This document shows positions 9,935 through 60,303 of a stretch of DNA of 64,000 nt, one piece after another. The translations under genes and the position numbers were made by a program. The notes beneath the pieces were generated by a model that did no database searches, had not been told where the DNA came from, and was given only the letters and a program-made list of their open reading frames with translations. Numbering within the stretch: the stretch's first letter is position 1; the number at the start of each line of letters is the position of its first letter. Source of the stretch: a virus; IMG/VR virus record IMGVR_UViG_3300045988_159911, one strand, 5' to 3'.

Positions 9935-9983
9935 CTCGCAAATCCTCCGTTAATTTATCTATGAAACCACAGTTTCATAAGTA

Positions 9984-11028: not shown

Positions 11029-11039
11029 ATTGAAACCCC

Positions 11040-14000
11040 TTAAACGAGCAAATGCTCATAGTCGAGAAGCTGAAAGTATTTTCCATCTCGCTCCCATCGC
11101 TTACAGACAATGATGTCATCCTCGCGGATAGGATCTTTGTCAAATTTTCTCTTAAACACTGTCATTCGGCTTTCTTTACCACTGCCGATAGACTGTGTTA
11201 GAACGCTATAGCCAAAAACTTCGTTGTCCCTTTTGCGGCGCACAGGATAGACACCAGTAATCAACAACTTGTTTCTGTCTGTCTCTTTGCCGGAAACATA
11301 CCCTGCATAACCCATGATATCCTTGAAGTTTTTTGCTTTCAGCGGAATGCTTAAATCATTTACCCCAAGAGTCTTTAGTTTCGCCTCACACTCACGGATA
11401 ATAGCCATAACATCGAGAAGCGTGTAACTCTTTGCTTCTTCTCCCTTTTTGGTTTTGCCGTTGGCATAACGCTTGACGATTTCCTCAAACTGTGTGCCGT
11501 CGATGCGGTCTTTCTTTATTTGCTTTGCCTCGCCTTTTTTGAACATCTCAAAAATATCGTTGATGGCGAAAAGCTCTCTCTGGTTACCGAAGTCAGAGAA
11601 GAAATCCAGCTTAATAAGAATGTCAAGCTGTCGTGAGTCAAGCGATGTCTTGTGAGTAATATCGTACAGCAGTTCAGAAAACGAATTATATGTATTGGTC
11701 TGAGAGAGTTCGTACAGCTCGTCCGCAGCCGCCTTACTCATATATTTAATGGAGCTCAAGCCTTTGGCGATAACATTTGCTTCTTTGTTATAAAAGTAAT
11801 CGCTTCTTGAAAGACCCCATTTAGGTGAAACAACCTTGATACCAACCTTAGAAGCATAAAGCGTAATGGAAGATGTTTTCTCTTTGTTGTCACCAAAAAT
11901 GTTGAGTGCTGCCGTTAGGAACTCAAGAGGGTGATAGTGTCTAAGATACCCGCAGATATATCCGATGGACGAGTATGCGTCTGAGTGGTTCCATGAAAAA
12001 CCATAAGCAGATGCATCAAGGATAATCTGAAGGAATGGTTTGATAATATCCTCGCATTGTTCCGCAGTCATGCTGTATTGTTCCGAACAATATCTGACAA
12101 ACCTTTCCTCAATTTCAGGAAGCAGCGTCTCTGTGCCTTTTTTCTTAGCAATGGCACGGCGAACATTATCAGACTCTGCAGCAGAATAGCCACAGAATTT
12201 AACGAGGAACTGCATGATTGTTTCCTGCATTGCAATTCGTCCTGCTTCTGGTGAAAGGAATTCATTGAGTGCATCAAAACCATTATCGTAAAACTCACCC
12301 ATTGCAACGCTGTCTCGGAAACTTGCACAAGCGGGTCGCAGCAAACCATTGCCGAATGACATCCATTTCAGCATGGAGAAGTTCGGTATCTTGGACTGTG
12401 CGATTGCCAATGTGGCGTCAGACATAAAGCGTTTCATATACTGTTGTGCGCTGTTGGACTCCCACTGGAAGATAAGCGTTGTGTCATTTCGGATACTTTT
12501 CCAAACATCCATATCTTCCATATCCGTGTTATCAGGTGTTAAACGCTCAATACCAAGCATTTTACAGGTGTCATTGATAACGCCGATATTATCCAGACCG
12601 AGAATGTCCAACTTGACATACATCAAGTCGTCCAGTTCCTTCATGTTAATCATGGAAACAGGATAATCGGAAGTAGATACACTGCAAAGACCGACTGTCT
12701 CCTCAATGGGCAGATCGCTGATCAGAACGCCACTTGGGTGGGTGCCAATGGAAACGATAGTACCATTGACGATATCCACATACATGAACACTTCTGGGTA
12801 ATCTTCTCGCGCCTTTTCCTCGTGAAGCTCAGCCTCATTGCAAATCTTATCTGCAATTTGGATATAATTGACCTCACGGTTATCTCGGTATAGAGCGCGA
12901 CATACATCTCGAATTGCACCCCTCAGCGCAATGGTGTTAAAGGTGATGATTTCTGCCGAGCGTATGTTCGGAAGGTTCATCTTATCTCTGAGCAAGAACT
13001 GTTTGACCTTATCTCTATCCTTGCCAGAATAGTCAGTATCAATATCCGCATTGGTGACACGAGACGGGTTCATAAAGCGGAAGAAGTTAAGACCGTACCG
13101 CATACTGTCCATCTGCGTAATACCAAGCAGATAAGCGATCATACTGCCAGAAACAGAGCCACGACCGTATCCGCACTGAATATCGTTTTCTCGTTCCCAC
13201 TCACGCAGATAGGTCTGCAAGAGCATGAAGTCAATTGACTGAGTAGCTTGATAAACCTTAAACTCCTCGTTTAGGACATCTCTCAGCTCTCTCTCATCAT
13301 GATTTTTTAGAGCGTAAGGGTGGTTGTTCATTGCTTCAAGAACCTTTTCCTTGAACGCTTTTTCGGGGTGTTCATAGATGTGTGGATACTTTGTTCCACG
13401 GTCAAGAGAGAACTCTTCAACCATATCCGCAAGAACATTGGTGTTTTCAATCGCCTGCAGATAAACCTCTTCGGGCAGAGAAGCTTGAACTCGGTATGCT
13501 TCAACAAGCTCGTCATAGGTTTTGAACTTCAGATCCCACCGTTCCTCACCATCGAAGAAGATATCCTTTGAGGTTTGCAGGATGCTTCTGCCTTTCTCAT
13601 GCACCTCGTTAAGAACATGAGTATCGGTGCCGGCAATCAAAGGGATGCCTGTCTGCTGACTTAATCTGTAAAGCCTGCGATTGTAGGAAACCTGACGATC
13701 ATCCATGTGGTGTCCGACTTCAAGAAAGCAGCGGTGCTTATTCTTGACCAGAAATTCAAGAAACCTTTCTTGTGTGTCGTCGTCGCCTTTTCCAAAAACA
13801 CCGCCGATGCAAGCTGTCGTAATCAGAATGTTATCTGATGTAGCAAACAGCTCATCGAAAGAAATTCGGGGAACATAGTAGTAATGGTTGTCTTTTCGGT
13901 TAAAGCTACCGGAGATCAGGCGGTTAAGCTCAAGAAATCCCTCGTAGTTTTTAGCCATAAGCACACAGTGCAGATTATCTCTGACCTTCTCTTCCAAAGT

Positions 14001-20508: not shown

Positions 20509-21462
20509 CTACCTTGTAAACGCCGCTTTCCAACACTCGTAGTCGTCTTCAAGATCACGACGAATACCGTTGGCAAGCTTATTCCTGGTGTAGTTACGGT
20601 GGTACTGGTGGTCTGTTTTACCCATACGCTCAACAATGAATGCGTCGAAATTCACTGGCTCTCCAAACCTTTCCATCTCATAGGTCTTATAGAAGAGGCC
20701 AGACAGACGGATTTTACCATACGATGTTTCAATACCTTCGGCCTTAAACTTCTTACCAATGACTGCCCTTATGGTAGTGAGCTTGATCTGAGCGGAACGA
20801 ATTCCTCTCAAAAGATGCTCGCCCGGATACCTGTTACGATACCCACCCTGCTTACCATCAGTATAGTTTGGGTTAACATAGCGAAACTCTGTAGCGTTGC
20901 AGGCCATCTTAAAGGCAGGAACTGCTTCACGATAGATCTCATAAGACTTTCCGCCATGTTCAATCGTCATGGTGTCAAAGTCTACTTCATCGACTGTTAC
21001 CTCAATCGCTTCTGCTTCTTCAATGCCTGCAAAACCCATCCAGAGATAACATCTGTATAGACAGTCTACTGTTTCGCTTGCTACCGGTTCAAAGATCTTA
21101 TTGAGTATGGCTTCGAGATGGATTGGAGAAGCTATCATCATGCGTTTCATCTTCTCGTCCATCTCAGTTTTCAGCTCATACACATCGCTACAGGTAGGAT
21201 AACCTTGTTCTTTGCACCAGCCGACATACGATCTCAAAAAGGCTATGGTTGAGTCCGTCGTTCTTGTACGGGAGCCAAACTTCGCATTAGCAATAGGCTG
21301 TAGGATGTCCACAGTAAGTTCGCAGAGATCCTTTTCCTCTTTCTGCTCATAGGGCTCTATGGTGTTGAACACAGACTTGCCAAAGTCTACTGAACTTCTC
21401 ATTTCGGTCAAAAACCGCATCTTTCGCTCTTCGTTATACATGGGAACCTCCTTACGCAGCAC
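20509..21462 (-). CDS. Hypothetical protein; weak, divergent resemblance to a tyrosine recombinase
   Basis: 317 aa with faint integrase-like blocks (SAM-like N-terminal domain, HLLRGIR, HQYHRNY), but the catalytic Arg is absent. The call is not secure. Confidence 0.25.
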   Translation of the reverse strand: MLRKEVPMYNEERKMRFLTEMRSSVDFGKSVFNTIEPYEQKEEKDLCELTVDILQPIANAKFGSRTRTTDSTIAFLRSYVGWCKEQGYPTCSDVYELKTEMDEKMKRMMIASPIHLEAILNKIFEPVASETVDCLYRCYLWMGFAGIEEAEAIEVTVDEVDFDTMTIEHGGKSYEIYREAVPAFKMACNATEFRYVNPNYTDGKQGGYRNRYPGEHLLRGIRSAQIKLTTIRAVIGKKFKAEGIETSYGKIRLSGLFYKTYEMERFGEPVNFDAFIVERMGKTDHQYHRNYTRNKLANGIRRDLEDDYECWKAAFTR

Positions 21463-21886
21463 AACAGTTCAGCCGGACGGCTGCCTGCCATACCTCCAGC
21501 AGATCGCTCTCGTTCAGAAACGAGATAGCTGCTGTGGCAAGCAGGTTCGCTGCTGCGATTTTCTTCATATACTCGTCGGGAAGTCTTGTCAGAAACTTTC
21601 CGATCCTCGCCTTAGACATTTTTTCGGGGTTCTCACACAAAACCATGCTGTCTCTCCGCAGACCGGTGTCTGCAGCGAGCACGACCACATGGGTCGGCTG
21701 GTTTGTTTTCTTGATAGAGCTGGTGAGTGGAAGTGCAATCACATTAGGGCTGTGTGCATTACCGACATTATTCTGAAACACCACGCCAGGTCTCCATCCG
21801 CTTTGCTCGTTCCCGCTACCCTCAAACTTCATCAGGTAGACATCTCCGATCACCGGAGCCATACTACTCTGCCGATTCTCGCTCAT
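21452..21886 (-). CDS. mazF: MazF/EndoA (PemK) family endoribonuclease toxin
   Basis: VIGDVYLMKFEGSGNEQSGWRPGVVFQNNVGNAHSPNVIALPLTSSIKKTNQPTHVVV...GLRRDSMVLCENPEKMSKARIGKFLTRLPDEYMKKI aligns closely with B. subtilis EndoA ([59 protein letters not shown]...). RBS GGAGGA lies 8 nt before the ATG at 21886. Confidence 0.8.
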   Translation of the reverse strand: MSENRQSSMAPVIGDVYLMKFEGSGNEQSGWRPGVVFQNNVGNAHSPNVIALPLTSSIKKTNQPTHVVVLAADTGLRRDSMVLCENPEKMSKARIGKFLTRLPDEYMKKIAAANLLATAAISFLNESDLLEVWQAAVRLNCCAA

Positions 21887-22607: not shown

Positions 22608-23402
22608 ATGAATTTTAGTGAAAACTTAAAGAGCATCCGAAGCGATGCCGGAATGACACAGAAATCCCTTGGCGAGAAGATCGGCGTTACTTCGGTCACT
22701 ATCGGGAACTGGGAGCGTGGCGTCCGGCAGCCTTCGTTTGAGCTGCTTCCCAAACTCGCAGACGCTCTTGATACAAGCGTTGATGCGTTGCTTGGAAAAC
22801 ATAGAACCGCCAGGAGGAACCTTGCGGAAGAGGAACTATTAGCAAACTACAGACAACTTGACGCACACGGTCAAAAACTTGTTCGTATCATATGCAACAC
22901 AGAACTTGAACGGTTAAAGCCGCGCAAACCAGAGGTTATTCGGTTCCAAGAGAAGAAACAGGAGAGAAAGGTCGCCAGAAAACACAATCGATACATCCCG
23001 TTTTACCTTACACCACCCGCAGCGGGCATTGCTGTTCCGCTTGAGGGCGATGAATTTGAGATGCTTCTGGCTGACGACTCTGTGCCGACAGATGCAGACT
23101 ATGCCGTTTGCATTTCTGGCGACAGTATGGAACCTTATATCCATGACGGAGAAATGGTGTTTGTTAAAGAGACGCAGGAATTATACGATGGTGATGTCGG
23201 TATTTTCTGTGTAGATGGCGCAATGTATTGCAAACAATACTATGTTGACGAAGAAAGAAACCTACACTTGCTGTCTGCAAACCCAAACAGGATAAACGCA
23301 AACATCTATGTAGATGGCGAAAGCGGGTCTTCTGTTAAATGCTGTGGCAAGGTTTTGCTTGGTAAGACAATACCGTTGCCTGATTATTTTGAAGAAGATT
23401 AA
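22608..23402 (+). CDS. CI/LexA-like repressor (N-terminal XRE HTH plus C-terminal S24 peptidase)
   Basis: N-terminal HTH (LKSIRSDAGMTQKSLGEKIGVTSVTIGNWERG); C-terminal AVCISGDSMEPYIHDGEMVFVK...CKQYY with the S24 Ser/Lys dyad. RBS AGGAGG. Confidence 0.85.
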   Translation: MNFSENLKSIRSDAGMTQKSLGEKIGVTSVTIGNWERGVRQPSFELLPKLADALDTSVDALLGKHRTARRNLAEEELLANYRQLDAHGQKLVRIICNTELERLKPRKPEVIRFQEKKQERKVARKHNRYIPFYLTPPAAGIAVPLEGDEFEMLLADDSVPTDADYAVCISGDSMEPYIHDGEMVFVKETQELYDGDVGIFCVDGAMYCKQYYVDEERNLHLLSANPNRINANIYVDGESGSSVKCCGKVLLGKTIPLPDYFEED

Positions 23403-25845: not shown

Positions 25846-26988
25846 TTATCTCCTTTGCAGCTTCTTCACTGAATCTGCGATGACATGAGCTGCCTCGCAA
25901 ATCTCCTCGTTCGTTGTAAACACAGAAAATGAAACACGGATTGAACTTCTCGCCTCATCGTCTGACAAACCAATCGCAGTCAACACATGGCTTGGAACTG
26001 CAGAATGGGCAGAACAGGCAGAGCCGGCAGATACAAAAATTCCTTTATTGTTGAGTAGAAGGAGCAAAGTTTCCCCATCCACTCCATCAAAGAAAAGATT
26101 GACTGTTTTTGAACCATCATGGGGGCAACCGTTAATCTGAACCTCACCCAGTTCTTTGGTGAGTTCACTCAAGAAAAGCTTACGCTTGTCTGCATTCTTC
26201 TGTTTGCTTGTAGGATCTTCGAATGCGGCCTCGGCAGCTTCTCCCATGCCGACAATAGACGGAACATTTTCCGTTCCAGACCGAAGCGTCTGCTCCTGAC
26301 CTCCGCCAAGAATGATTGGTTGAAGAAGTTCTTTGTGTTTTGCGTATAAAAAACCCACGCCCTTTGGAGCGTGGAACTTATGACCGGAGACTGAAAGAAA
26401 ATCGATATGATCCCTTTCCACATCAATATCCATATTGCCATATGCCTGGACACAATCTGTATGGAAGAAGATGCCATACTTCTTACACTTTGCTCCGATC
26501 CTCTGGATGTCATAGGAATTTCCCGTTTCATTGTTGACTGCCATCACGGACACAAGACCGGTATTTTTCCTAATCTTCCTGGTGAGTTCGGCGGTATCCA
26601 ATTCACCGTCTTTACCCATAGCCAAATACTCGACTTCAAAACCACTATAAAACAGGTATTTCATAGCCTCCAAAACGGAGGGATGCTCTACCGGAGTAGT
26701 AAGCACATGAGTTTTTCCAATGGATTCGAGGTGTTTTGCCAAACCCACGATTGCCAGTGTGTTTGCTTCTGATCCACCAGAAGTGAAGATAATATCTTCT
26801 GGGTCAGCATTGATTGGCCTTGCACACTGTTCCCTTGCTTTCTGCATTGCTTTTGCCGCATCTGCTCCCATCGTGTGAATGCTTCCTGCGTTACCATACA
26901 TTTCTGTGAAATACGGGAGCATAGCATTTACCACTCGCTGAGAGACCTGTGTGGTTGCGGCATTATCCAAATAGATCGTGGGAACCAC
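25846..26988 (-). CDS. Cysteine desulfurase (NifS/IscS-like, class V aminotransferase)
   Basis: SGHKFHAPKGVGFLY PLP-lysine motif; N-terminal LDNAATTQ; C-terminal SAGSACS catalytic-cysteine loop. Confidence 0.8.
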   Translation of the reverse strand: MVPTIYLDNAATTQVSQRVVNAMLPYFTEMYGNAGSIHTMGADAAKAMQKAREQCARPINADPEDIIFTSGGSEANTLAIVGLAKHLESIGKTHVLTTPVEHPSVLEAMKYLFYSGFEVEYLAMGKDGELDTAELTRKIRKNTGLVSVMAVNNETGNSYDIQRIGAKCKKYGIFFHTDCVQAYGNMDIDVERDHIDFLSVSGHKFHAPKGVGFLYAKHKELLQPIILGGGQEQTLRSGTENVPSIVGMGEAAEAAFEDPTSKQKNADKRKLFLSELTKELGEVQINGCPHDGSKTVNLFFDGVDGETLLLLLNNKGIFVSAGSACSAHSAVPSHVLTAIGLSDDEARSSIRVSFSVFTTNEEICEAAHVIADSVKKLQRR

Positions 26989-26994
26989 CTCCCA

Positions 26995-27483
26995 TCAATG
27001 GTTATCGTTATCGGTGTGCAGCGTTACACCGGCACCGAAGATAAATTCCTTGATGTCGGTATTGTACTCATGCAGGAAATCATCCAGAGTACGATAATCT
27101 TCGCGACTCTGATGGTCAATATAACCATCTGAAGGATCAAGCCAAAGCCCCTTGCAGTTTGCATATTCTGCAACGACCTCATTGATACGGTCAAAATCAC
27201 GCGTTTCAATGAAGTTCTTAATATCCTCTTCGTTGGTTACATCATCATAGCACGACTCGTTACAGCCATTCAGGCAGCGAGCCATTGTCAGCAGATAGCT
27301 CAATCTGGTTTCCTGATCGGTGTAGTCCCAGACCTCCCAACCAAACTCGCCAAACTCTGCATGGACATATCCGTCCTCGCTGACATACAAATAATTGGTG
27401 GACAATCCCTTACTGTGGTCAACGGTCACAGAATGGGTGCTACTGGAGTTTGTTTCAAAAACTCCTCTGCGAATTTGTTTCAT
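26995..27483 (-). CDS. Member 1 of a paralogous family with the conserved N-terminal motif RRGVFETNSSSTHS
   Basis: MKQIRRGVFETNSSSTHSV...; paralogs at 42898..43194 and 43359..43916. Confidence 0.5.
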   Translation of the reverse strand: MKQIRRGVFETNSSSTHSVTVDHSKGLSTNYLYVSEDGYVHAEFGEFGWEVWDYTDQETRLSYLLTMARCLNGCNESCYDDVTNEEDIKNFIETRDFDRINEVVAEYANCKGLWLDPSDGYIDHQSREDYRTLDDFLHEYNTDIKEFIFGAGVTLHTDNDNH

Positions 27484-30947: not shown

Positions 30948-31808
30948 TCACAGCCACCGCTCAACATAGTCGCGGTCTTGTGTGAAAATCGGAGGCTCAT
31001 TGTCGATAATCCATTTGCGTCTGGAAACCGTGATGGTCTTACCAGGATTATTCTGGTCAGGCATATTGATTTCCTCAGCTTGCCTATAGCAGCAAGAACC
31101 TCTCTTGCAATCCACGGGGAAATCGTTCCAGTTGATACCATGTACCTGCCACAGCATCTCCTGAATCATGTTTGTGGTCTTCTTATGAAGCTGATTGGCG
31201 CTGAAATACGCTTGTCCAACAGCCTCGATACTGTTTCTGGTGGCATCCTGCTGTCGCCAAATCAAGCAGTTGCAAACTTCATCCTTGGGGACTGAGAATG
31301 CACGAGAATCAAAAAGAGCGCCCTTATTCAGCGCCCTCTTCAAGGTTTCTGCGTATTTGTTCAGCTCCTTTTTGATCTCAGGATCTTCGCTATACATACC
31401 ACTCAGTACATCTTCCCGATTGAAATAATCGTCGATGTTCTGATAGAGCGCTTTGTTAAAAGCCAGGGTTGCCAGCGATGCTGAGATGCTGCACATCTTC
31501 TGGAGGTTATATCCAAACCACGCATCGGTTGTGATGGTCGCGTAGTCCGTCAAAACCAAAGTGATTTCGTCAGACTGTGTGTAGCCAAATACACAACCCT
31601 GAATATTGGCGCAGAGACTTTGCATGGTCTGTTGCATGGTTTTCATCAAGATAGAATCAAAAGGCTTTTTCATGCCCTTTGTAAAGGTGTGAAACGCCTT
31701 GCCGTCAATGCGGATCACAACTGGGACTCTGCGTGTCAGATAGCTACGAGAGATATTTTCATAGCTCTCTTTCATACGGTCACCCAAAGAGTCCTTCTTA
31801 TTGCTCAT
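30948..31808 (-). CDS. Thg1-like tRNA-His guanylyltransferase family protein
   Basis: MKESYENISRSYLTRRVPVVIRIDGKAFHTFTKGMKKPFD...FGYTQSDEITLVL matches the Thg1 N-terminal signature (RxDGxxFHxF...KPxD...SDEIS). Confidence 0.65.
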   Translation of the reverse strand: MSNKKDSLGDRMKESYENISRSYLTRRVPVVIRIDGKAFHTFTKGMKKPFDSILMKTMQQTMQSLCANIQGCVFGYTQSDEITLVLTDYATITTDAWFGYNLQKMCSISASLATLAFNKALYQNIDDYFNREDVLSGMYSEDPEIKKELNKYAETLKRALNKGALFDSRAFSVPKDEVCNCLIWRQQDATRNSIEAVGQAYFSANQLHKKTTNMIQEMLWQVHGINWNDFPVDCKRGSCCYRQAEEINMPDQNNPGKTITVSRRKWIIDNEPPIFTQDRDYVERWL

Positions 31809-33150
31809 CGCTGCACCATCCTTTCATAATCAAATGTTTAATGATTGCGGGGCGCTCGTTTTCAAGGTTACCACTGATGACAGCATCAAGAACCTCATTT
31901 AGAATTCGCCCAACATCTTTACCCTCTTTTACATCGCAGAGGTTCATAATGTCATACCCGTCAATGACCAGATCCTTCAGCTTAAAGCATTGGTTCTGCT
32001 CAATGATTTCGCTTGCCATCATGCCAAGAGCGATACATCTGTCAATGCGAGACTCTTGCGTATCTTTTCTGTGAGCCAGAATATCTGCCATGCGAATATC
32101 AAGAAGTCGCATAAACTGCTTTTCACCGACTTTATTGAGCCATCTACGAACCGTTTTGGGAGTAGGCTCAATAACTGCATCGTGATATAGCACCAGTTCA
32201 AGAATGTCATCTCGCGATTTGTTATCAAAGCGAAGTCTTGTCAGGACTTTTTCTGCAAGGTCATGGCTGAAAACCCCATGACCGTAGAAGTGCCCACCAT
32301 TGTGATCTTCTGTATAACAGCATGGTTTACCAATGTCGTGAAGCAGAAGTGATACATTTACCACCGGATCTGTGGCGTCGTAGTTTGCAACCGCATGAGC
32401 AATATGGTCGTAAATCGTAAACTCATGGAATCGATTGTTCTGGTCAAATCCAATACAAGGCTTAAGTTCAGGAATAATCGTTGCCATCACATCGCTATAT
32501 TCAAGCAGGATATTGAGAATACCCTTGCCGGCCAGCATCTTGCATAGTTCTGACTGGATGCGCTCTGCAGCAATGTTCATCAACCTATCTTTGTTTTGGT
32601 GAATGGATCTTGCTGTTTCTTCGGCAATAGAAAAACCGTATACAGATGCAAATCGCATTGCTCTAAGGATACGCAGAGCGTCCTCTCCAAACCTGTCGTC
32701 TGGATTTCCAACACAGGAAATAACACCACGCTCCAAATCTTCGTTTCCACCAAAAGGATCGATCAGACCGTTATGGTTGTATGCCATTGCGTTAATGGTG
32801 AAGTCTCTGCGAGCCAGATCTTCCGCCACATTTGTTACGAACCTTACCGAATCGGGGTGGCGGTTATCTGAATATTCGCCATCCACTCGAAATGTAGTGA
32901 CCTCATACTGCCCATCGTCCATTACGATGGTTACAGTACCGTGCTTCAATCCTGTCTCGATAACACGCTTGTCACAAAAACTGTATAGAATTTGTGACGG
33001 GGAGGCAGATGTACACACATCCCAATCCTTAGGCTCGACGCCAAGCAGACTGTCTCTTACACAGCCACCGACCACATATGCGTCATATCCTGCCTGCTGT
33101 AGGGTATGGGTAATAATTTGGGCACCCTGAGGAATATGGATATCACTCAT
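31798..33150 (-). CDS. cca: CCA-adding tRNA nucleotidyltransferase with a C-terminal HD domain
   Basis: GGCVRDSLLGVEPKDWDVCTSASP head motif; RxxRF motif; HD motif (LLHDIGKP). Confidence 0.8.
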   Translation of the reverse strand: MSDIHIPQGAQIITHTLQQAGYDAYVVGGCVRDSLLGVEPKDWDVCTSASPSQILYSFCDKRVIETGLKHGTVTIVMDDGQYEVTTFRVDGEYSDNRHPDSVRFVTNVAEDLARRDFTINAMAYNHNGLIDPFGGNEDLERGVISCVGNPDDRFGEDALRILRAMRFASVYGFSIAEETARSIHQNKDRLMNIAAERIQSELCKMLAGKGILNILLEYSDVMATIIPELKPCIGFDQNNRFHEFTIYDHIAHAVANYDATDPVVNVSLLLHDIGKPCCYTEDHNGGHFYGHGVFSHDLAEKVLTRLRFDNKSRDDILELVLYHDAVIEPTPKTVRRWLNKVGEKQFMRLLDIRMADILAHRKDTQESRIDRCIALGMMASEIIEQNQCFKLKDLVIDGYDIMNLCDVKEGKDVGRILNEVLDAVISGNLENERPAIIKHLIMKGWCSDEQ

Positions 33151-34165
33151 TGATCGCCCTCCTGTTTACTTCTACCACAAACTCTTCAACACGCTTCATA
33201 TTGGGTGTTGCCGGCAGGTCAGTGTTTTCCTTGGCATACTTCAAACGCTTCTCGTAGCTATTCACCAAGTCGAAGAATTCCTGCCTATATGAACCGTCTT
33301 CTCTCTGGAATTTGCCATTACGAATACTCAGCAAAAACTCCCGATCTCCGTAACGGTAGGTATTGATCTCACCCTTTTCCAGAATGTCAAGGCACATCAT
33401 GTACAGACGGATTAGGTGCATGGCGTGCTTGTTGAGATGGTTGTCGTCCTTTTTACGATTTCGATGGTTCAGCTTTTCATAGTTGCCAATGACATTGGAA
33501 AGCGTATTTATCATCACGCTAAAATCTCTTGCAGGGAACTTGTCGATGTGAATGTTGCAAAAGACTTCTCGATCCAAATCATCGCGTGGACTTTCATCTG
33601 TAAACAGGGTAATGCCGCCGCTATCCATCACAGAATAGCGGTCTGCGAAAGCCTTAAAAGAACGCTCCATTGCACTTCGGATATGTTCTTCGGTATCCGC
33701 CTGACACATTTTATCTCTTGCCAGAGCATTCTGCAGGCGTCGTAGCTGCTGTGTTGCATACCCGCCAAAAGAATTAACTGCCTTCTGAGAAAGGAAGAGA
33801 TCGCGGTTGTCAATCATCATCTGTCCAGCGTCAGAGATGTAAAAATAATGCTCTGGCTTGCAGCCGAGCATCTCAATGGTGTTGGGGTTGCAGTTAAGCA
33901 AAAGACCAATCAGTTTATTAAACCCGTAGATCGTGGTGTCGGTCTGTGTGTGTACGACCTGCTCAAAGTTCGTGAGGCCGAGGATATCGCTTTTGCTGTT
34001 CATTGCACACCCTCGAATATCGACATCCGAGGTTTCAACATTCGTTCCGTAGGCGTAACTCCCGCCCAGTGTCAGAAACATGATGCGATCCTTGAGATGT
34101 GGGTTGGTTCGCAGAAAATCATATTCTTCGCTTGCCACCATCTCTTTAATTTGCTCAATCGTCAT
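33143..34165 (-). CDS. Pol-beta superfamily nucleotidyltransferase, possibly an RlaP-like RNA-repair-associated enzyme
   Basis: TLGGSYAYGTNVETSDVDIRG carries the GS...DxD minimal nucleotidyltransferase motif. Overlaps the cca start by 8 nt, so the two are translationally coupled. Confidence 0.55.
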   Translation of the reverse strand: MTIEQIKEMVASEEYDFLRTNPHLKDRIMFLTLGGSYAYGTNVETSDVDIRGCAMNSKSDILGLTNFEQVVHTQTDTTIYGFNKLIGLLLNCNPNTIEMLGCKPEHYFYISDAGQMMIDNRDLFLSQKAVNSFGGYATQQLRRLQNALARDKMCQADTEEHIRSAMERSFKAFADRYSVMDSGGITLFTDESPRDDLDREVFCNIHIDKFPARDFSVMINTLSNVIGNYEKLNHRNRKKDDNHLNKHAMHLIRLYMMCLDILEKGEINTYRYGDREFLLSIRNGKFQREDGSYRQEFFDLVNSYEKRLKYAKENTDLPATPNMKRVEEFVVEVNRRAINE

Positions 34166-34701
34166 ACGCTCCTCCTTCCTTGGTATGTTTCGTATAATGC
34201 TTTCTGTGGCGCATACTCACCAAAGAGTTCAATCTCTTTTGAGAGCCTTGCCTTGACAGCATCTTCTTTGAATTTGTATCTCCCTATGTAAACGCGCTTG
34301 CCGTTGTATGAGATATTAGCAAGCCACATTCCGCGTTCCTTATCGTAGAAAACACCCGTTACGCCGGAAGTGTTGGTGGAATAAAGACCACGGTTGCGGT
34401 CGTTCTCTGTAAACGCACAGCGTCTCAGATTGCGCTTGCGGTTATCTTTTCTATTCTTGTCGATATGGTCAACTATCTCTCCGGGCTTAGCGTGCATCAC
34501 AATCCTGTGGAATCTGGAGACCTGATAACGACCGAAATAGTAATAGCCGCATACGAGGTATCCATCTTTATCGGGATACCAGTTGCGGCTTTGGATCAAA
34601 TGCAGATCGTCGAGATCAAACAGATATTCAGATGTTCCGAGGTGAAGAATACCGTGCGTTGAAAGAAGCTCAATTCGTTTCTGGGCGGCTTTCATCTCCA
34701 C
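34162..34701 (-). CDS. HNH homing endonuclease with an AP2 DNA-binding domain
   Basis: HNH region RFHRIVMHAKPGEIVDHIDKNRKDNRKRNL; AP2-like region SGVTGVFYDKERGMWLANISYNGKRVYIGRYKFKEDAVKAR. Confidence 0.65.
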   Translation of the reverse strand: MEMKAAQKRIELLSTHGILHLGTSEYLFDLDDLHLIQSRNWYPDKDGYLVCGYYYFGRYQVSRFHRIVMHAKPGEIVDHIDKNRKDNRKRNLRRCAFTENDRNRGLYSTNTSGVTGVFYDKERGMWLANISYNGKRVYIGRYKFKEDAVKARLSKEIELFGEYAPQKALYETYQGRRSV

Positions 34702-42897: not shown

Positions 42898-43194
42898 TTA
42901 ACCGTCTCTTCCGTAGGTGCCAAAGGCAACCATCTTATCACCACTCGGCGTAGTAAAGCGATGGGAATAAACATCAAGTGAGTACCATCTGTTATCGCCG
43001 AGATTTTCGTAGGTGCAATACTGACCGTCTTCATCCTCAGTGAGGATAGAGGATTTCGGAACCAGCTTTTCGCCCCAACTGTCATACATCAGCTCACCGC
43101 GCTTAAACTTCTCATACTCGTCTTCGGTGCAAATGGTGATGCTATGAGTGGAACTACTGTTCGTTTCGAACACGCCGCGTCTAACCTGCTTCAT
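42898..43194 (-). CDS. Member 2 of the RRGVFETNSSSTHS family (short form)
   Basis: MKQVRRGVFETNSSSTHSI...; only the N-terminal 18 aa are shared with the other two members. Confidence 0.45.
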   Translation of the reverse strand: MKQVRRGVFETNSSSTHSITICTEDEYEKFKRGELMYDSWGEKLVPKSSILTEDEDGQYCTYENLGDNRWYSLDVYSHRFTTPSGDKMVAFGTYGRDG

Positions 43195-43358: not shown

Positions 43359-43916
43359 TTAATTTCCTTTGTAATACTCCTCGTGAGGATAAAGTGCATG
43401 GATATCTACATCCATATCACTATTATCGTTTCCGGTGAGTACAAAACTGTCTTCAGAGAAGAGATACCGCAAAAGGCGCCCCTTATTACTTGTAGTCTTA
43501 TCCACAAACCTTTGGTGATCATCTTCACCGCAGTGGTCTACACTTGCATTTACCACATAGGAACCGCTTCCGTAATTGTGGTATACAGCCTCGTCGAACT
43601 CACACTCGACACCAACACTGTCAAGAGTTTCCATGATAAACGCCATGACATCTTGTGCTTTTTCTCTGCTGTAAAGACTCAGAAAACTGGCATAAAGATA
43701 TGCCGCCTTTTCTTCAGGGGTGTCAAGCCGATCAAAACCCCAACCAAAATCTTCACATCGGAAGATAAGTTTGGCAGGGTAAGAAAGTTCCGTGTTACGA
43801 TTGGTTGCAATACAGATGCTGTGGGTGCTGCTGGAGTTTGTTTCAAAAACACCGCGCCGTTCCTGTCTCATTAGGTTTCTCCTCTCGTTCGTATTTGAAA
43901 AGAATTCGTAATCCAT
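43359..43916 (-). CDS. Member 3 of the RRGVFETNSSSTHS family
   Basis: ...RQERRGVFETNSSSTHSI... with further similarity to member 1 (FGW, LTGNDN versus LHTDNDN). Confidence 0.5.
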   Translation of the reverse strand: MDYEFFSNTNERRNLMRQERRGVFETNSSSTHSICIATNRNTELSYPAKLIFRCEDFGWGFDRLDTPEEKAAYLYASFLSLYSREKAQDVMAFIMETLDSVGVECEFDEAVYHNYGSGSYVVNASVDHCGEDDHQRFVDKTTSNKGRLLRYLFSEDSFVLTGNDNSDMDVDIHALYPHEEYYKGN

Positions 43917-44969: not shown

Positions 44970-45056
44970 TGGTACGGATAGTGGGACTTGAACCCACACA
45001 TCATTGCTGACATTAGCACCTGAAGCTAACGCGTCTGCCAATTCCGCCATATCCGC
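44970..45056 (-). tRNA. tRNA-Leu(CAG), type II
   Basis: Reverse complement is GCGGATATGGCGGAATTGGCAGACGCGTTAGCTTCAGGTGCT...GGGTTCAAGTCCCACTATCCGTACCA, close to E. coli tRNA-Leu(CAG); CCA is encoded. Confidence 0.75.
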
Positions 45057-45229: not shown

Positions 45230-45320
45230 TGGCGGAGCAGATAGGACTTGAACCTACACACCCTTTCGGGCTACTCACGGTTTAGCAAACCGCTGCCTTA
45301 CCAATTAGGCTTACTGCTCC
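45230..45320 (-). tRNA. tRNA-Ser(GCT), type II
   Basis: Anticodon loop TTGCTAA, long variable arm, T-loop GGTTCAAGTCC, CCA encoded. Confidence 0.75.
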
Positions 45321-45324: not shown

Positions 45325-45400
45325 TGGAGCTGGTGGACGGATTCGAACCCCCGACCTACTGATTACAAATCAGTTGCTCTACCGACTGAGCTACACCAGC
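45325..45400 (-). tRNA. tRNA-Thr(TGT)
   Basis: GCTGGTGTAGCTCAGTCGGTAGAGCAACTGATTTGTAATCAGT...GGTTCGAATCC...CCA. Confidence 0.8.
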
Positions 45401-46015: not shown

Positions 46016-46125
46016 TGGTGGAGAGGGATGGATTCGAACCACCGAAGCTTAATTGACCACACGGCGCCCCAAGTCAAAAAGCGGAGATTTACAGTCCCCG
46101 ACTTTGGCCACTTGTCTACCTCTCC
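46016..46125 (-). tRNA. tRNA-Tyr(GTA)-like gene with an abnormally long (about 39-nt) variable region
   Basis: Canonical acceptor stem (GGAGAGG/CCTCTCC), anticodon arm GGGGA-CTGTAAA-TCTCC and T-arm GGTGGTTCGAATCCATC plus CCA are all present. A 39-nt variable insert makes the whole 110 nt. Confidence 0.4.
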
Positions 46126-46283: not shown

Positions 46284-46359
46284 TGGTGGAGATGGTCGGG
46301 ATCGAACTGGCGACCTCCTGCTTGCAAGGCAGGCGCTCTCCCAACTGAGCTACATCCCC
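46284..46359 (-). tRNA. tRNA-Ala(TGC)
   Basis: GGGGATGTAGCTCAGTTGGGAGAGCGCCTGCCTTGCAAGCAGGAG...CCA; the G3:U70 Ala identity pair is present. Confidence 0.8.
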
Positions 46360-47016: not shown

Positions 47017-48510
47017 TTAGTGCTTGTCAGCAATCGCGCCGCCCAGCATACCGGACAGCACGGCCATCAGATCCAGGCCGGTTGCATCCTTGAAACCATC
47101 CTGAACCTGCTTCATGCCGGTGGTAACGGCGCCGGTCAGAGTGGAAGTACCACCCTCGTAGATGGTCATGTTGTCGATACCCTCCATAGGCTTAGCAACG
47201 GCAGCGGCAATCTCAGGCATGGTCTTGACATACTCCATTGCCACATCCAGAACCATCTGCTGCTTAGCAGCGTCGCCGTATTCCTTCATAGCTTCTGCCT
47301 TCTTCAGAATGCCTGCAGCCTCAGCCTCTGCCTTAGCCTGAATGGCCTCGGCTTCAGCACGACCCTTGGCAGCGATACCGGCAGCTTCGTTTTCCATTGC
47401 CACACGAGCAGCTTCGGAACGAGCCTTTTCAGCAGCAGCTCTCTGCTCTGCCTCAAACAGCTCTGCAGCAGCCTGCTTCTGACGCTCGAACAGCTCAGCC
47501 TCAGAAGACTTCTGAACCTCATACAGCTTTGCATCAGCTTCCTGCTGTGCAGCGTACTTATCGGCCTCAGCCTTCTTCTTGATCTCTGCATCCAAAGAAC
47601 GCTCACGGATAGCAACCTCGCGCTCCTTCAGTTCGATTTCCTTTTCCAGACGAGCCAGGTTGGCTTCGGCTGTCTTGGTTTCGATGGATGCACGCTGCTC
47701 CTGCTCCTGAATTGCATAGGCAGCATCTGCTTCTGCTCGCTTGGCGTCCTCAATCTTCTTCAGCTCAGCCATCTGAATGGCAAGCTCGTTCTGACGCTTA
47801 GCAATCTCCTGATCGGACTTAACCTGAGCCTCGTTGGCAGCCATAGCAGCCTGAGCCTGAGCAATAGCAATCTCCTTCTCTGCCTGAGCCTTGGAAATTG
47901 CGGCGTCCTTGGAAATCTGAACAGTGTTCTCCAGACCGAGGTTGTCGATCACGCCGTTGCGATCCTTGAAGTTCTGAATGTTAAAGGTAGTCAGCTCCAG
48001 ACCCATATCGTTCAGGTTGGGAGTAACATTCTCAATGATACGCTCGGCAAAAATCTTCTTGTCACCCTGGATCAGTTCCTTCAGAGTGGTCTGAGAAATG
48101 ATCTCACGAATATTACCCTCCAGAACAGGAGTAATGATTTCGCGAATCTGATTGGGATTATAGCCAAGGAATTTAGAGGCTGCGACCTTCAGCATATCAG
48201 GATCTTTAGCGATGGACACATTGGCTACTGCGTCAACCATAATGTTGATAGCATCCTTGGTGGGGATCTCATCGCGAGAAGTGAAGTCAGACTGAATGTT
48301 TTCCAGAGACATATAGTCGACACGCTGGATGATAGGAATAACCAGTGCGCCCTGACCGATAATTGTTCTTGCACCACGGGGGCCGGTGATGACCATTGCC
48401 ACATTGGGAGGTGCTTTCTTATACATAACCTTGCCAATGAAGATCAGAAGAATGATTGCGACAAGGATGCCGACACCGGCGGTTGCGTAAGGCAAAATCA
48501 TTTCGAGCAT
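47017..48510 (-). CDS. Flotillin/SPFH (band 7) family protein, FloT/YuaG-like
   Basis: N-terminal transmembrane anchor, SPFH domain (VMVITGPRGARTIIGQGALVIPIIQRVDYMSLENIQ) and a long EA-rich coiled coil (AEAEAIQAKAEAEAAGILKKAEA). Confidence 0.65.
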   Translation of the reverse strand: MLEMILPYATAGVGILVAIILLIFIGKVMYKKAPPNVAMVITGPRGARTIIGQGALVIPIIQRVDYMSLENIQSDFTSRDEIPTKDAINIMVDAVANVSIAKDPDMLKVAASKFLGYNPNQIREIITPVLEGNIREIISQTTLKELIQGDKKIFAERIIENVTPNLNDMGLELTTFNIQNFKDRNGVIDNLGLENTVQISKDAAISKAQAEKEIAIAQAQAAMAANEAQVKSDQEIAKRQNELAIQMAELKKIEDAKRAEADAAYAIQEQEQRASIETKTAEANLARLEKEIELKEREVAIRERSLDAEIKKKAEADKYAAQQEADAKLYEVQKSSEAELFERQKQAAAELFEAEQRAAAEKARSEAARVAMENEAAGIAAKGRAEAEAIQAKAEAEAAGILKKAEAMKEYGDAAKQQMVLDVAMEYVKTMPEIAAAVAKPMEGIDNMTIYEGGTSTLTGAVTTGMKQVQDGFKDATGLDLMAVLSGMLGGAIADKH

Positions 48511-51864: not shown

Positions 51865-53010
51865 CTACTGGTTGAGATCCTCGCTCATGCTTTTCATAAC
51901 ATCGGTGTGGAACTTCTCATTGTTGTACTTGATTACGCTATCTACATACTCTTTTTCGACCATGCTGTAATAGTTGACCAAACCACGCAGAACCTGTACA
52001 TCGTGCAGATCCCAATGGCGACCATTCTGCCGGTCGAGAATGTAGTTGCAAATCATTGCCCGCAAGCGCTGTTTGTTCTTATAACCAATGGTGATCTCAT
52101 TATCCTTATTGAGCATCACACCGAGGTTCCAATTACTTCCAGCGCGTGAGCCATAGCGCGTCTTTTCGTCTTTGATCTTAAAAGGAGCACCAAACTCTGC
52201 GAGGGTAGAATTGATAAAGCCGATGATTTCATCCTTATCAAAACCCTTACGGCTTGAAAAGAGAGAGTCATCGGCATATCTGGTATATACATAATGATTT
52301 CCATTGAAGTCGCGCAGGCAATTGTTGATACGATGGTCAATGGGAATCATCATCAGATTCGTGAGCATAGGGGAAATAGGTGTTCCCTGCGGGAGACCAC
52401 CGTTCAGGAAACACAGATCCAACGCTTTTTCCAAAGCATCAAATCCGCGCTGAGATTTTACGATCTCGCTAAATGGAAATACTTTGGAAAGCATAGACAT
52501 CAGGAACTTCGGAGTTGTGCTGCCAAAGAAGTCAGAGAAGTCGGTCTTGAGGAACCAATGACTCTCATTCTTCTGATGACGCTTTACCGCGTCGATGGTA
52601 GATCTTCCGGGAACATAAGCAAATGCGCTGGTATGATACAGCGCAAACATCTGGGTTTCAAAAATCGTTTTCAGATTTCTGAGCGCATTCATCAGCGCTG
52701 GCTGCGGCGCATTGATCTCACGCAAGCCACCGGACTTCTTAGGGATATAGAACTTATCGTAGAGGTCGCTGCGCTTTGCCTCGTAAAGTTTAGCGTTCTG
52801 CTTGCAAAACTCTTCCAAGGTTACGACCATTGCATCAATATCAAAACGCTCAAGGAACTTGGGGTTCAGAACTTTGGAAAAGTAAGTTCTTGTGTTGGTC
52901 TCATTGGGGTTGACCATGTTGGCGAGATTGACATTCCCCGAAATAATTTCATCAAATGTGATCTGATGGAAAATCGGAGACTGCATCAGCGTAATGTAAG
53001 GCACTTCCAA
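51865..53010 (-). CDS. Reverse transcriptase, retron/DRT-like (not DGR-type)
   Basis: RT motifs IPKKSGGLREINAP, LKTDFSDFFGS, GLPQGTPISPMLTNL (QGxxxSP) and YTRYADDSLFS (YADD). The ORF begins at a TTG; a GTG at codon 3 sits 7 nt after RBS GGAGG. Confidence 0.8.
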   Translation of the reverse strand: MEVPYITLMQSPIFHQITFDEIISGNVNLANMVNPNETNTRTYFSKVLNPKFLERFDIDAMVVTLEEFCKQNAKLYEAKRSDLYDKFYIPKKSGGLREINAPQPALMNALRNLKTIFETQMFALYHTSAFAYVPGRSTIDAVKRHQKNESHWFLKTDFSDFFGSTTPKFLMSMLSKVFPFSEIVKSQRGFDALEKALDLCFLNGGLPQGTPISPMLTNLMMIPIDHRINNCLRDFNGNHYVYTRYADDSLFSSRKGFDKDEIIGFINSTLAEFGAPFKIKDEKTRYGSRAGSNWNLGVMLNKDNEITIGYKNKQRLRAMICNYILDRQNGRHWDLHDVQVLRGLVNYYSMVEKEYVDSVIKYNNEKFHTDVMKSMSEDLNQ

Positions 53011-53363: not shown

Positions 53364-54245
53364 TTACATCTTTTTCAGAATCGCAAAGAACTCCTCTTCA
53401 TCAATCTCGATGATCTCCTGTGGAGCACTGAGAACCTCATAGTACCCATCGCCGTCAGGCTCATCTGAGATTAGGATTTCAGGATTGAGTTTCAAAGCTG
53501 GGCGCACCCCCACACAATCGCCGCAAGCATAGGCATCGCTGAAATCGCCATCGCGATTAACGCAACGCACATTGTACGAGTCGCCAGAGTTCGGGGAGCG
53601 CAGGTAGTAGTACCACTCCTCGTCTTCATATTCGGGCTTGTCATTATTGGGAGTATTGGCGTACAGTTCGGGAGAGAACAGGCAAGCTCTGTTTGCACCG
53701 TCCGCAAACAAATCCCAAACCTCGCCCTCCTGAATGCGGTTTTCAGTTCCACCGCCCACATTGGTTCTGGAGGGCATGAAAACCTTAGCATAAATGGTTT
53801 CATACTTTTCGCCACCAGTAGGAATATCCTTGGTAGGCAGCGCCGTTTTGATCTCGGACTCCTCAATGGCTTCGACTTCCCACTCCTCAAAGTAGTGCAG
53901 GAAACCAGGCTTTTGAACATAACCGTAGCGACCATTGTACATCAGGCGATCTTCAGGAGCCGTGTCGTGTTCGTGTGTCGGACGGAACCAGTCGGTGCCC
54001 TCGGCATTCAGGAACTGATGGCCGTTACTTAAGGAGTAGCGGTTGTTACCGTAACTCCTGCGGTATTCGTCGGGGTTATCGGACTCTTTTGCATCAAATG
54101 CACACTGATCTTCCATAAACTCGGTCAAGATCGTGCCGTCGCGATGAGCCTTTACCCAGCAAATCTTATGCGGCATCTCACCGCTGACGCTATAAGCGCC
54201 GAACTTCAGTTTTGCCCCGATGGGCAGGTCTGCGATAGTAGGCAT
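53364..54245 (-). CDS. Hypothetical protein with a DUF1566-like C-terminus (possible adhesin or receptor-binding domain)
   Basis: C-terminus WYYYLRSPNSGDSYNVRCVNRDGDFSD...GVRPALKL resembles the VRCVR/GVRP signature. Confidence 0.35.
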   Translation of the reverse strand: MPTIADLPIGAKLKFGAYSVSGEMPHKICWVKAHRDGTILTEFMEDQCAFDAKESDNPDEYRRSYGNNRYSLSNGHQFLNAEGTDWFRPTHEHDTAPEDRLMYNGRYGYVQKPGFLHYFEEWEVEAIEESEIKTALPTKDIPTGGEKYETIYAKVFMPSRTNVGGGTENRIQEGEVWDLFADGANRACLFSPELYANTPNNDKPEYEDEEWYYYLRSPNSGDSYNVRCVNRDGDFSDAYACGDCVGVRPALKLNPEILISDEPDGDGYYEVLSAPQEIIEIDEEEFFAILKKM

Positions 54246-54269
54246 AACCGCTACTCCTTTCGTATTTAT

Positions 54270-54947: not shown

Positions 54948-54968
54948 TTGGTCAGTCTCCCTTCTTAT

Positions 54969-60214: not shown

Positions 60215-60303
60215 TGGCGGAGAGGGTGGGATTCGAACCCACGGAGGTTTTACCCTCGCCGGTTTTCAAGACCGGTTCCTTAAACCAGCTCGAACACCTC
60301 TCC
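60215..60303 (-). tRNA. tRNA-Ser(TGA), type II
   Basis: ...GGAACCGGTCTTGAAAACCGGCGAGGG...GGGTTCGAATCCCACCCTCTCCGCCA, similar to E. coli tRNA-Ser(TGA). Confidence 0.75.

Follow-up and report, generated by a model that had tools for sequence, protein, structure and literature searches.

Conflict between phages and their hosts over tRNA has been studied mostly as cleavage in the anticodon loop, and the known answers of phages are healing and ligation or the supply of replacement tRNAs. What, then, is the use of three overlapping nucleotidyltransferase genes carried next to one another by a temperate phage of uncultured gut Clostridia? The window analyzed here, a 64-kb stretch of DNA, is a portion of a genome of about 110–120 kb. 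The trio, which lies on the minus strand, opens with a gene for a long divergent RlaP-like Pol-beta nucleotidyltransferase (33143–34165; 340 amino acids), followed by one for a predicted CCA-adding enzyme of class II that carries an HD (HDIG) phosphohydrolase domain at its C terminus (31798–33150; 450 amino acids) and one for a Thg1-like protein (TLP) of the bacterial type (30948–31808; 286 amino acids), by family a template-dependent 3′–5′ nucleotidyltransferase. The initial annotation had described three consecutive overlapping genes of these families; the open reading frames lie exactly where it had placed them, all three assignments agree with Pfam, PHROG and NCBIfam matches, and the signatures quoted for the first protein (GS as G35 S36; DxD as D47 and D49) and the third (RIDG...FHTF and SDEI) are found. 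We consider that the trio is a tRNA end-repair or end-maintenance module, probably serving counter-defense, and give this reading a probability of roughly 55%. The families, the intact catalytic residues, the co-orientation and overlaps of the genes, their conserved linkage and the lack of a nearby ligase support it; from them we infer which substrates the enzymes use, in what order they act and that they serve counter-defense. The cluster DNA has no near match among 50,697 phage records, and the closest cultured relative by DNA polymerase, Clostridioides phage pCD1602_4 (46%), is not a close one.

Is the third enzyme a Thg1 or a TLP? It matches the Thg1 model PF04446 with 101.9 bits (cutoff 29.2) and PHROG 4717 with an E-value of 1.5e-88. 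Its closest solved relative is the TLP of Bacillus thuringiensis (BtTLP; 4kgk), to which it aligns over nearly its full length (1.2e-56), while E-values against eukaryotic Thg1s reach only 1e-5 to 1e-7. The stretch HINNLYN, which recognizes the anticodon of tRNA-His, marks a Thg1 as opposed to a TLP. In the alignment to the Thg1 structure 5xox, the eukaryotic HINNLYN stands opposite DATRNSI in the phage protein; with this stretch absent and BtTLP nearest, the protein belongs to the bacterial TLP type. The catalytic carboxylates, on which the initial annotation had made the assignment depend, are intact: D35, D80 and E81 align with D30, D75 and E76 of BtTLP (numbering of PMC3701042; D29, D76 and E77 in hTHG1), and E17, R33 and K44 are likewise conserved. 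Thus the phage protein resembles BtTLP in all the catalytic and nucleotide-binding residues checked and in having no tRNA-His motif. It differs in a 38-residue insertion (about 126–163) between the palm and C-terminal parts, and in being encoded by a phage beside 3′-end transferases. TLPs including BtTLP repair 5′-truncated tRNAs of many kinds in vitro (PMC3701042).

The second enzyme has a PolyA_pol head domain (PF01743; 129 bits, 1.5e-37), PolyA_pol_RNAbd and tRNA_NucTran2_2 domains and an HD domain (23.1 bits; cutoff 22). The head of class II enzymes is characterized by motifs A–E (GGxVRD...DxD, RRD, DxxGGxxDL, EDxxR and ERxxxE). Among 24 phage homologues, the head stretches GGCVRD, DWD, RRDFTINAM, DPFGG..DL, EDALRI.RA.RF and ERI..EL are at least 95% conserved, as are the HD-domain residues H..H..H, LLLHDIGKP, GGHF.GH, YHD and ADI.AH. 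Domain matches, motifs A–E and the retained metal-binding HD residues together fit the description of a full-length CCA-adding enzyme with an HD domain. The match to NCBIfam NF009814 "CCA tRNA nucleotidyltransferase" is barely over the cutoff (292.5 bits versus 290), the protein is far under the cutoffs of the PcnB models, and its best solved relatives are the CCA-adding enzymes of Planococcus (6ibp, 8e-59) and Geobacillus (1miv, 1e-55). Sequence is no safe guide to whether such a protein adds CCA or instead poly(A), A or CC, and this one is best called a predicted CCA enzyme. The HD domain of E. coli Cca removes 2′,3′-cyclic or 3′-phosphates, and by analogy that of the phage enzyme may be a phosphohydrolase. 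The two enzymes share the class II head motifs A–E and an HD domain with the conserved metal-binding His/Asp set, and NCBIfam NF008137 matches residues 108–340 of the phage protein. Unlike E. coli Cca, the phage enzyme has a head nearest to those of the Bacillales type (6ibp, 1miv), and its 121 bits are far under the 451-bit cutoff of the E. coli Cca equivalog.

The RlaP family was reportedly defined by Burroughs and Aravind in 2016. The first protein of the trio matches the RlaP model PF10127 with 57.9 bits (cutoff 23; 1.6e-15), the match being confined to model positions 18–141 of 249; the same model is present in all 120 database homologues among the matches listed, and PHROG 388 "nucleotidyltransferase" covers the protein in full length (1.9e-54). 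Its Pol-beta catalytic set is complete, with hG[GS], DxD and a third Asp. Across 62 homologues of 33–63% identity, no substitution occurs at G35 or D76, conservation of S36, D47 and D49 is 90% or higher, and K246, H247, H250 and R253 vary little or not at all. An AF2 model (pLDDT 93) consists of a nucleotidyltransferase domain and a helical domain, and its closest solved folds are small-molecule or protein nucleotidyltransferases (KNTase/ANT(4′), LinB, DrrA and HalB). The only match of the sequence in the PDB, to a ryanodine receptor, was dismissed as spurious. Membership in an antibiotic-resistance (ANT/KNTase, LinB) or an Abi/defense family, the alternative that the initial annotation had raised, was not found. 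Canonical RlaPs, which occur in RtcB operons and include T4 NrdC.11 (PMC12776372), have in common with the phage protein the Pol-beta core in an N-terminal nucleotidyltransferase domain and a Pfam match above the cutoff, and their C-terminal helical domain and cleft may be similar too. However, an hhalign comparison with canonical RlaP (94.5% probability) extends over residues 27–140 only, so that just the first 120 residues or so of the phage protein align with it, and the canonical RlaPs found here have about 270 residues, about 70 fewer than the phage protein. It is filed as RlaP-like, of a divergent branch. The substrate of the nucleotidyltransferase had been called unknown, which is no longer the case for RlaP: Pseudomonas PfRlaP and PaRlaP add one or two NMPs to RNA 3′-OH ends and favor cleaved tRNA (preprint PMC12776372). 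Since the RlaP model matches only the N-terminal half and no RlaP structure was found in the PDB, the phage protein could act on another substrate than the Pseudomonas enzymes do.

How tightly are the three genes bound together? The stop codon of the RlaP-like gene and the start codon of the CCA gene lie within an 8-nt overlap, AATGAGTGA, and the end of the CCA gene overlaps the start of the TLP gene by 11 nt. Each start has a GGAGG-like ribosome-binding site located within the preceding gene, and no intergenic promoter or terminator consensus was found within the trio. Independent gene calls on metagenome contigs gave identical products. Overlap is frequent among the genes of this phage: with open reading frames called from the first start, 29 of the 104 adjacent pairs on the minus strand overlap. 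By itself it is therefore weak evidence for functional coupling. Conserved linkage is stronger evidence. In all 36 related phage loci with enough sequence, the CCA gene directly follows the RlaP-like gene, and 34 of them keep the 8-nt overlap; CCA enzyme identity ranges from 59 to 98%, and the loci at 59–72% are among those that keep it. The TLP gene lies 0–2.5 kb from this pair and shifts its position, giving three gene orders: RlaP–CCA–TLP, TLP–RlaP–CCA, and TLP separated by 2.4 kb from RlaP–CCA. In most of the phage relatives a calcineurin-type metallophosphoesterase and a cysteine desulfurase homologue are encoded between the TLP and RlaP genes, as in the relative L021 (TLP 8001–8834, Metallophos 9434–10024, Aminotran_5 10071–11285, RlaP 11290–12312). 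At about 27 related loci the TLP gene has neither RlaP nor CCA gene inside 8 kb; four or more of them are second copies, their contigs bearing the cluster as well. Recurrent clustering in unrelated phages was considered and rejected: the TLP gene is solitary in BSP38 and Fnu1, and so is the CCA gene in Lak-B1, with no partner inside 24 kb. In Clostridioides phages the RlaP and CCA genes are non-adjacent.

In genomes of Lachnospiraceae and other Clostridia, the slot after the long RlaP gene is taken by a canonical RlaP at 63 of 78 loci; in bacteria, then, the long form is the partner of canonical RlaP and not its substitute. The order RtcB–Band7–long RlaP–RlaP, with RtcB two genes upstream of the pair, occurs at five of the 78. 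The long RlaP thus usually has a second RNA 3′-end transferase as its partner and in some cases a link to an RNA ligase. Among its distant representatives, one 9-kb contig holds no partner transferase and the other contigs are mostly 1–2 kb, which limits a rule of constant partnership to the phage clade and the Lachnospiraceae branch.

An outline of how the module may work is as follows. The three genes would be expressed together from a single transcript. The HD domain of the CCA enzyme, acting like that of E. coli Cca, would clear 2′,3′-cyclic or 3′-phosphates left by a nuclease. The long RlaP-like enzyme could then lengthen a trimmed RNA 3′-OH end by one or two nucleotides without a template, an activity known from canonical Pseudomonas RlaPs only, and the class II enzyme would restore C74-C75-A76. 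Where the 5′ strand of the acceptor stem has been shortened, the TLP would fill it in again by 3′–5′ synthesis on a template, as BtTLP and other TLPs do in vitro. In this way host and phage tRNAs might be kept chargeable when, in the course of infection or of prophage induction, host nucleases or toxins act on tRNA ends.

Counter-defense by tRNA end repair had already been suggested for this locus, and it stands as the best-supported inference, but not as a new idea: RlaP, CCA-adding enzyme and Thg1 have been proposed to serve jumbo phages in RNA repair after attack by host nucleases, some of the systems using calcineurin-like and HD domains for the phosphatase step (Iyer et al., 2021; PMC7824862). 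The present phage resembles those described by Iyer, Anantharaman, Krishnan, Burroughs and Aravind in the three families and in being rich in tRNAs. In their account RlaP is distributed as RNA ligases are, and each enzyme is treated as a component on its own, whereas here a temperate phage of about 110–120 kb has a contiguous coupled trio with a divergent long RlaP and no ligase within the searched range. Each enzyme type is known from phages; the tightly coupled ligase-free arrangement has not been described before. As a compact three-protein system, the trio would be suited to studying repair of both the 3′ and the 5′ end of tRNA. That the cluster has end-extending enzymes alone, kept coupled throughout a clade of abundant gut phages, points to damage at the acceptor end as a separate battleground, and a divergent RlaP branch that usually has a second RNA 3′-transferase beside it is relevant to the unsettled role of RlaP.

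A more specific version of this module can be put forward only tentatively, at odds well short of even. The long RlaP would be a "pre-CCA" extender, always accompanied by a second terminal transferase, and the TLP would fill the opposite strand, so that both strands of the acceptor end are rebuilt independently of a ligase. The long RlaP may restore discriminator or stem nucleotides beyond the reach of the CCA enzyme, and its partner, canonical RlaP in Lachnospiraceae, may have been replaced in situ by the CCA enzyme in phages. If this is true, hosts among the gut Clostridia would attack the acceptor ends of tRNAs by a class of mechanism as yet unrecognized.

Could the enzymes simply look after the tRNAs of the phage? 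The CCA enzyme and TLP would then mature or quality-control these tRNAs and boost late translation, with no link to host defense, which would make the trio an ordinary finding. Such a housekeeping role was put forward by authors of Bacillus phage genomes (PMC6292376), and organism counts place TLP, CCA and RlaP-like genes mainly in large tRNA-rich phages. The window contains seven tRNA or tRNA-like genes, all on the minus strand. Five, found by ARAGORN and Rfam, form a cluster: Leu(CAG) at 44970–45056, Ser(GCU) at 45230–45320, Thr(UGU) at 45325–45400, a Tyr(GUA)-like gene with a 37-nt variable arm at 46019–46125, and Ala(UGC) at 46284–46359. They are possible substrates of the trio. A Ser(UGA) gene lies at 60215–60303, and an odd tRNA-like gene at 61338–61410 has an abnormal anticodon loop of 6 nt and no encoded CCA, as this explanation would have it. 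However, CCA is part of all five clustered genes, whose acceptor stems are paired throughout, and over the whole set CCA is encoded in six of seven and the 5′ end is paired in seven of seven. The enzymes are thus unneeded for routine maturation of those six tRNAs, and the suggestion that they support aberrant tRNAs of the phage itself finds little in these genes. Editing of 5′-mismatched phage tRNAs by the TLP, as in protist mitochondria, was likewise rejected, the acceptor stems all being paired. Moreover, a host with CCA-less tRNA genes must already own a CCA enzyme, and the constant pairing with the RlaP-like gene is left unexplained. Housekeeping is therefore rather unlikely.

Alternatively, the RlaP-like enzyme may restore nucleotides lost at an anticodon cut before a ligase from another part of the phage genome or from the host seals the break, the CCA enzyme and TLP being mere neighbors that act independently. 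Repair of cuts by anticodon nucleases of the PrrC/RloC type requires an RNA ligase. The RlaP family has been defined through its association with RNA ligases, and in vitro RlaP replaces a nucleotide lost from the anticodon loop (PMC12776372, PMC7824862). Besides the five cellular loci with RtcB, KptA is encoded 5 kb from the RlaP-like gene of a Clostridioides relative and an Rnl1-type ligase 4 kb from the TLP gene of Stenotrophomonas phage RAS14. Against this, no RNA ligase, polynucleotide kinase or KptA was found in the 64-kb window or in 10 kb past either end, the part of the 110–120-kb genome that was searched, and none of them among the larger open reading frames of one representative relative. 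Among the neighbor families that recur at the remaining 73 cellular loci, none is ligase-like. Ligase association is the origin of the RlaP name and not a biochemical criterion, hence the filing of the protein as RlaP-like; canonical RlaP goes with an RNA ligase, whereas the conserved 8-nt coupling ties the long RlaP of this phage to a CCA enzyme. Anticodon sealing is thus improbable, and the suggested countermeasure against PrrC and RloC does not fit a region in which no ligase was found. In our preferred reading, end repair, the trio is like the T4 Pnkp/Rnl1 pathway a phage-encoded response to host tRNA damage. In T4 the ends of an internal break are healed by a kinase-phosphatase and sealed by a ligase, and the present cluster comprises end-extending transferases and a phosphohydrolase domain only.

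That the three are accessory genes brought together by descent or hitch-hiking in an early-gene region, with a small molecule, a protein or a signaling nucleotide as a possible non-RNA substrate of the RlaP-like enzyme, would agree with the common overlaps in this genome, the variable and often solitary TLP gene, the lack of clustering in Lak and Clostridioides phages and the solved folds nearest to the RlaP-like protein, but is highly improbable.

The co-oriented overlapping array exceeds the three genes and runs on into unrelated ones. A cysteine desulfurase (class V aminotransferase) gene at 25846–26988 on the minus strand (Aminotran_5, 2.3e-82) has a loose connection to the trio. Directly upstream of the RlaP-like gene, and overlapping its start by 4 nt, is an HNH-AP2 homing-endonuclease-like gene (34162–34701, minus strand; Pfam AP2 and HNH_3; PHROG 99 HNH endonuclease, 3.3e-36). 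Its location varies among the relatives, and it belongs to the same co-oriented array but probably stands outside the functional module.

The initial annotation placed the three ORFs correctly to the nucleotide: they are arranged head to tail on the minus strand, and consecutive genes overlap at their start and stop codons as described there. The RlaP-like gene (33143-34165, minus strand) encodes a 340-aa protein matching Pfam RlaP (PF10127; 57.9 bits, cutoff 23) and PHROG 388, 'nucleotidyltransferase'. Its stop overlaps by 8 nt the start of the CCA-adding enzyme gene (31798-33150, minus strand), the 450-aa product of which has a PolyA_pol head (1.5e-37), RNA-binding and tail domains and an HD domain, and barely reaches the NCBIfam equivalog NF009814 for CCA tRNA nucleotidyltransferase (292.5 bits vs 290). 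The stop of this gene in turn overlaps by 11 nt the start of the Thg1-like protein (TLP) gene (30948-31808, minus strand), encoding 286 aa with a match to Thg1 (PF04446; 101.9 bits, cutoff 29.2) and PHROG 4717. Every start codon has its own ribosome-binding site of the GGAGG type, located within the gene ahead of it, and no promoter or terminator consensus was found between the three genes. The array extends past them: an HNH-AP2 homing-endonuclease-like gene (34162-34701) lies ahead of the RlaP-like gene and shares 4 nt with its start, and downstream of the TLP gene come small genes.

The best-supported reading of the trio, to which we give a probability of roughly 55%, is that of a co-expressed tRNA end-repair module. 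Terminal phosphates would be removed by the HD domain of the CCA-adding enzyme, a step for which the activity of the HD domain of E. coli Cca is the basis; the RlaP-like enzyme would extend a shortened 3′-OH end by one or two nucleotides, the CCA-adding enzyme would rebuild the CCA, and TLP would restore the 5′ strand by synthesis templated on the 3′ strand. Each proposed activity is documented for a relative, that of RlaP relatives in PMC12776372, and is attributed to the phage proteins by analogy. We infer a counter-defence purpose for such a module, which agrees with the RNA repair proposal for jumbo phages (Iyer et al., 2021; PMC7824862).

The best solved relative of the phage TLP is that of Bacillus thuringiensis (BtTLP; 4kgk, E 1.2e-56), whereas eukaryotic Thg1s match it at 1e-5 to 1e-7 only. 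Its identification as a Thg1-like protein is borne out by the catalytic carboxylates, which are all kept: D35, D80 and E81 align with D30, D75 and E76 of BtTLP, which are essential (PMC3701042). E17, R33 and K44 are also aligned with functional residues, the HINNLYN stretch of eukaryotic Thg1 reads DATRNSI in the phage protein, and the phage protein differs from BtTLP in an extra 38-residue insertion. It is a bacterial-type TLP, a type that repairs 5′-truncated tRNAs of many kinds in vitro (PMC3701042). The CCA-adding enzyme is nearest to those of Planococcus and Geobacillus. Motifs A to E and the A-B loop are present and at least 95% conserved among 24 phage homologues (59-98% identity), in which the His and Asp residues of the HD domain (LLLHDIGKP, GGHF.GH, YHD, ADI.AH) are as conserved as motifs A-E; full CCA addition is a prediction from sequence. 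The RlaP-like enzyme belongs to a large family (5,593 clusters at 50% identity). Its catalytic residues are those of the Pol-beta set (G35, S36, D47, D49 and D76), and a patch of K246/H247/H250/R253 is also conserved. In the confident AF2 model (pLDDT 93) an NTase domain precedes a helical domain.

Among the alternatives, service of the phage's own tRNAs is the most probable. The window holds seven tRNA or tRNA-like genes. However, CCA is encoded in six of the seven (Leu, two Ser, Thr, Ala and Tyr-like) and the acceptor stems of all seven are fully paired, so the trio is not needed for their routine maturation, and these features favour repair over maturation. The tRNA-Tyr(GUA)-like gene (46019-46125, minus strand; CCA encoded) is 107 nt long with a 37-nt variable region, and was detected by Rfam (38.1 bits) and missed by ARAGORN. 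The only gene without CCA (61338-61410, minus strand; Rfam 51.4 bits) is a possible pseudo-tRNA or unusual decoder, its anticodon loop (AUAUGA) being 6 nt long.

Classical break repair, with a ligase encoded at an unlinked site, fares less well. The RlaP preprint (PMC12776372) describes RlaP solely within ligase operons, and in Stenotrophomonas phage RAS14 an Rnl1-type ligase lies 4 kb from TLP. When every ORF of the window was scanned with Pfam, no RNA ligase, polynucleotide kinase or KptA was detected, and none of these was found among the genes called up to 10 kb beyond either end.

Mere co-location is the weakest alternative. Neighbouring minus-strand ORFs often overlap in this genome (29 of 104 adjacent pairs), so that overlap alone says little about function, but a CCA gene follows the RlaP-like gene in all 36 loci with enough downstream sequence (34 from IMG/VR and two MAG contigs). 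The two genes share the 8-nt overlap of the window in 34 of these 36, despite divergence of the proteins to 59-72% identity. The position of TLP is less fixed than this pair, with three arrangements among the 66 related loci retrieved from IMG/VR with TLP as the query. The window order, with TLP after the CCA gene, recurs in L006-L009 and L018; TLP is directly ahead of the RlaP gene in L068; and in about 30 loci it is 1.6-2.5 kb upstream of the RlaP gene, the gap being filled in the representative examined (L021, 9434-11285) by a calcineurin-type phosphoesterase and a cysteine desulfurase. In the window the phage cysteine desulfurase is encoded at 25846-26988 (minus strand), and most relatives have it, together with the phosphoesterase, in the interval separating the TLP gene from the RlaP-like gene; a role in tRNA thiolation or in Fe-S enzymes is possible. 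About 27 loci have TLP with neither an RlaP nor a CCA gene inside 8 kb, and at least four of these TLPs are second copies on contigs that also hold the cluster. A distance of about 40 kb separates this second paralogue from the cluster, and its neighbours include a radical SAM gene and a DNA methylase (L043, 7917-8855; others in L042-L051); the contigs are those of L021, L022, L028 and L041.

No clustering was found outside this clade in the phages examined. Bacillus phage BSP38 and Fusobacterium phage Fnu1 each have a TLP gene that stands alone, the CCA gene of Lak-B1 has no partner inside 24 kb, and Clostridioides phages have their RlaP-like and CCA genes at separate places. Clostridioides phage pCD1602_4 has two short RlaP-like fragments only (L152, 1524-1782), probably a decayed copy; its CCA gene, about 12 kb away, is intact.

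Lachnospiraceae and other Clostridia carry homologues of the long RlaP (about 50% identity) on their chromosomes. Canonical full-length RlaP immediately follows the long form in 63 of 78 chromosomal loci (L074-L151), as in Hungatella hathewayi (NZ_CP102274; pair at L108, 7884-9831; canonical RlaP at 9001-9831, PF10127 301 bits); therefore the bacterial long RlaP has a second RNA 3′-end transferase as its partner. Clustering of neighbouring ORFs revealed that this pair alone is conserved, the rest being unrelated housekeeping genes. RtcB precedes the pair in five loci (L112, L133, L142, L145 and L147), and in three of these (L142, L145, L147) RtcB and the pair are separated by an ORF of 367 aa, which in L142 was confirmed as Band_7/SPFH. 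A flotillin/Band_7 (SPFH) protein is also encoded in the window, adjoining the tRNA cluster (47017-48510, minus strand). The slot after long RlaP is thus occupied by canonical RlaP in bacteria and by the CCA-adding enzyme in the phage clade, and the literature searched makes no mention of how long RlaP is partnered.

All three families, their occurrence in phages and the repair interpretation have already been published. What is new is that a clade of abundant gut phages has the three genes contiguous and translationally coupled, that the RlaP-like and CCA genes are strictly coupled without a nearby ligase, and that the partner is swapped between bacteria and phages. To a specialist the cluster is suggestive more than surprising; as a compact system, it lends itself to tests of the in vivo role of RlaP-type enzymes.

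The window genes are almost all on the minus strand and include those for a DnaE-type DNA polymerase, primase and DnaB helicase, besides NrdD/NrdG, ThyX, PhoH, ClpP, ERF, a PD-(D/E)XK nuclease and a reverse transcriptase. There was no DNA-level match in the phage collection, and the closest cultured relative by polymerase is pCD1602_4 (46%). The exact RlaP-like protein was found on 21 metagenome contigs, the largest of 105 kb, with the same gene order in independent gene calls. On a 384-kb contig with an identical NrdD, an integrated form runs through dUTPase, Xis and integrase into bacterial argG/argH (L159, 14571-21917). Among named relatives, this ArgG is closest to those of MAGs assigned to Clostridia and 'Candidatus Aphodomorpha', and the junction indicates insertion into an uncultured Clostridia chromosome. 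On a 122-kb contig the same integrase is followed by phage lysis genes. Assemblies ERZ28615283, ERZ27229424 and ERZ28019354 hold contigs of 105-122 kb. The window is therefore part of a temperate phage of about 110-120 kb from uncultured gut Clostridia.

Past the right end of the window (L157, 1-9138) are encoded a sigma factor, a tyrosine integrase, a YonV_C protein and an 893-aa RdRP-family (PF05183) protein resembling the YonO-type RNA polymerase of SPbeta. The reverse transcriptase (RT) of the window is encoded at 51865-53010 (minus strand; RVT_1 7.6e-19, PHROG 2825), and in the episomal form of a relative (L160) an RT gene is also close to the lysis genes. A MazF/PemK-type endoribonuclease toxin homologue (21452-21886, minus strand; 6e-21) adjoins an MrpR-like recombinase gene (20509-21462), near a LexA/CI-type repressor (HTH_3 and Peptidase_S24; about 22608-23402, plus strand). 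A three-gene run (53364-55871, minus strand) encodes a DUF6273 protein, a ThiF/E1-like protein (54270-54947) and a protein (54969-55871) with an HxHx7Sx2D JAMM-like motif but no Pfam match, and may be a ubiquitin-like conjugation or deconjugation set. Finally, the N-terminal motif RRGVFETNSSSTHS is nearly identical in three otherwise different minus-strand ORFs (26995-27483, 42898-43194 and 43359-43916), which form an uncharacterised paralogous family.
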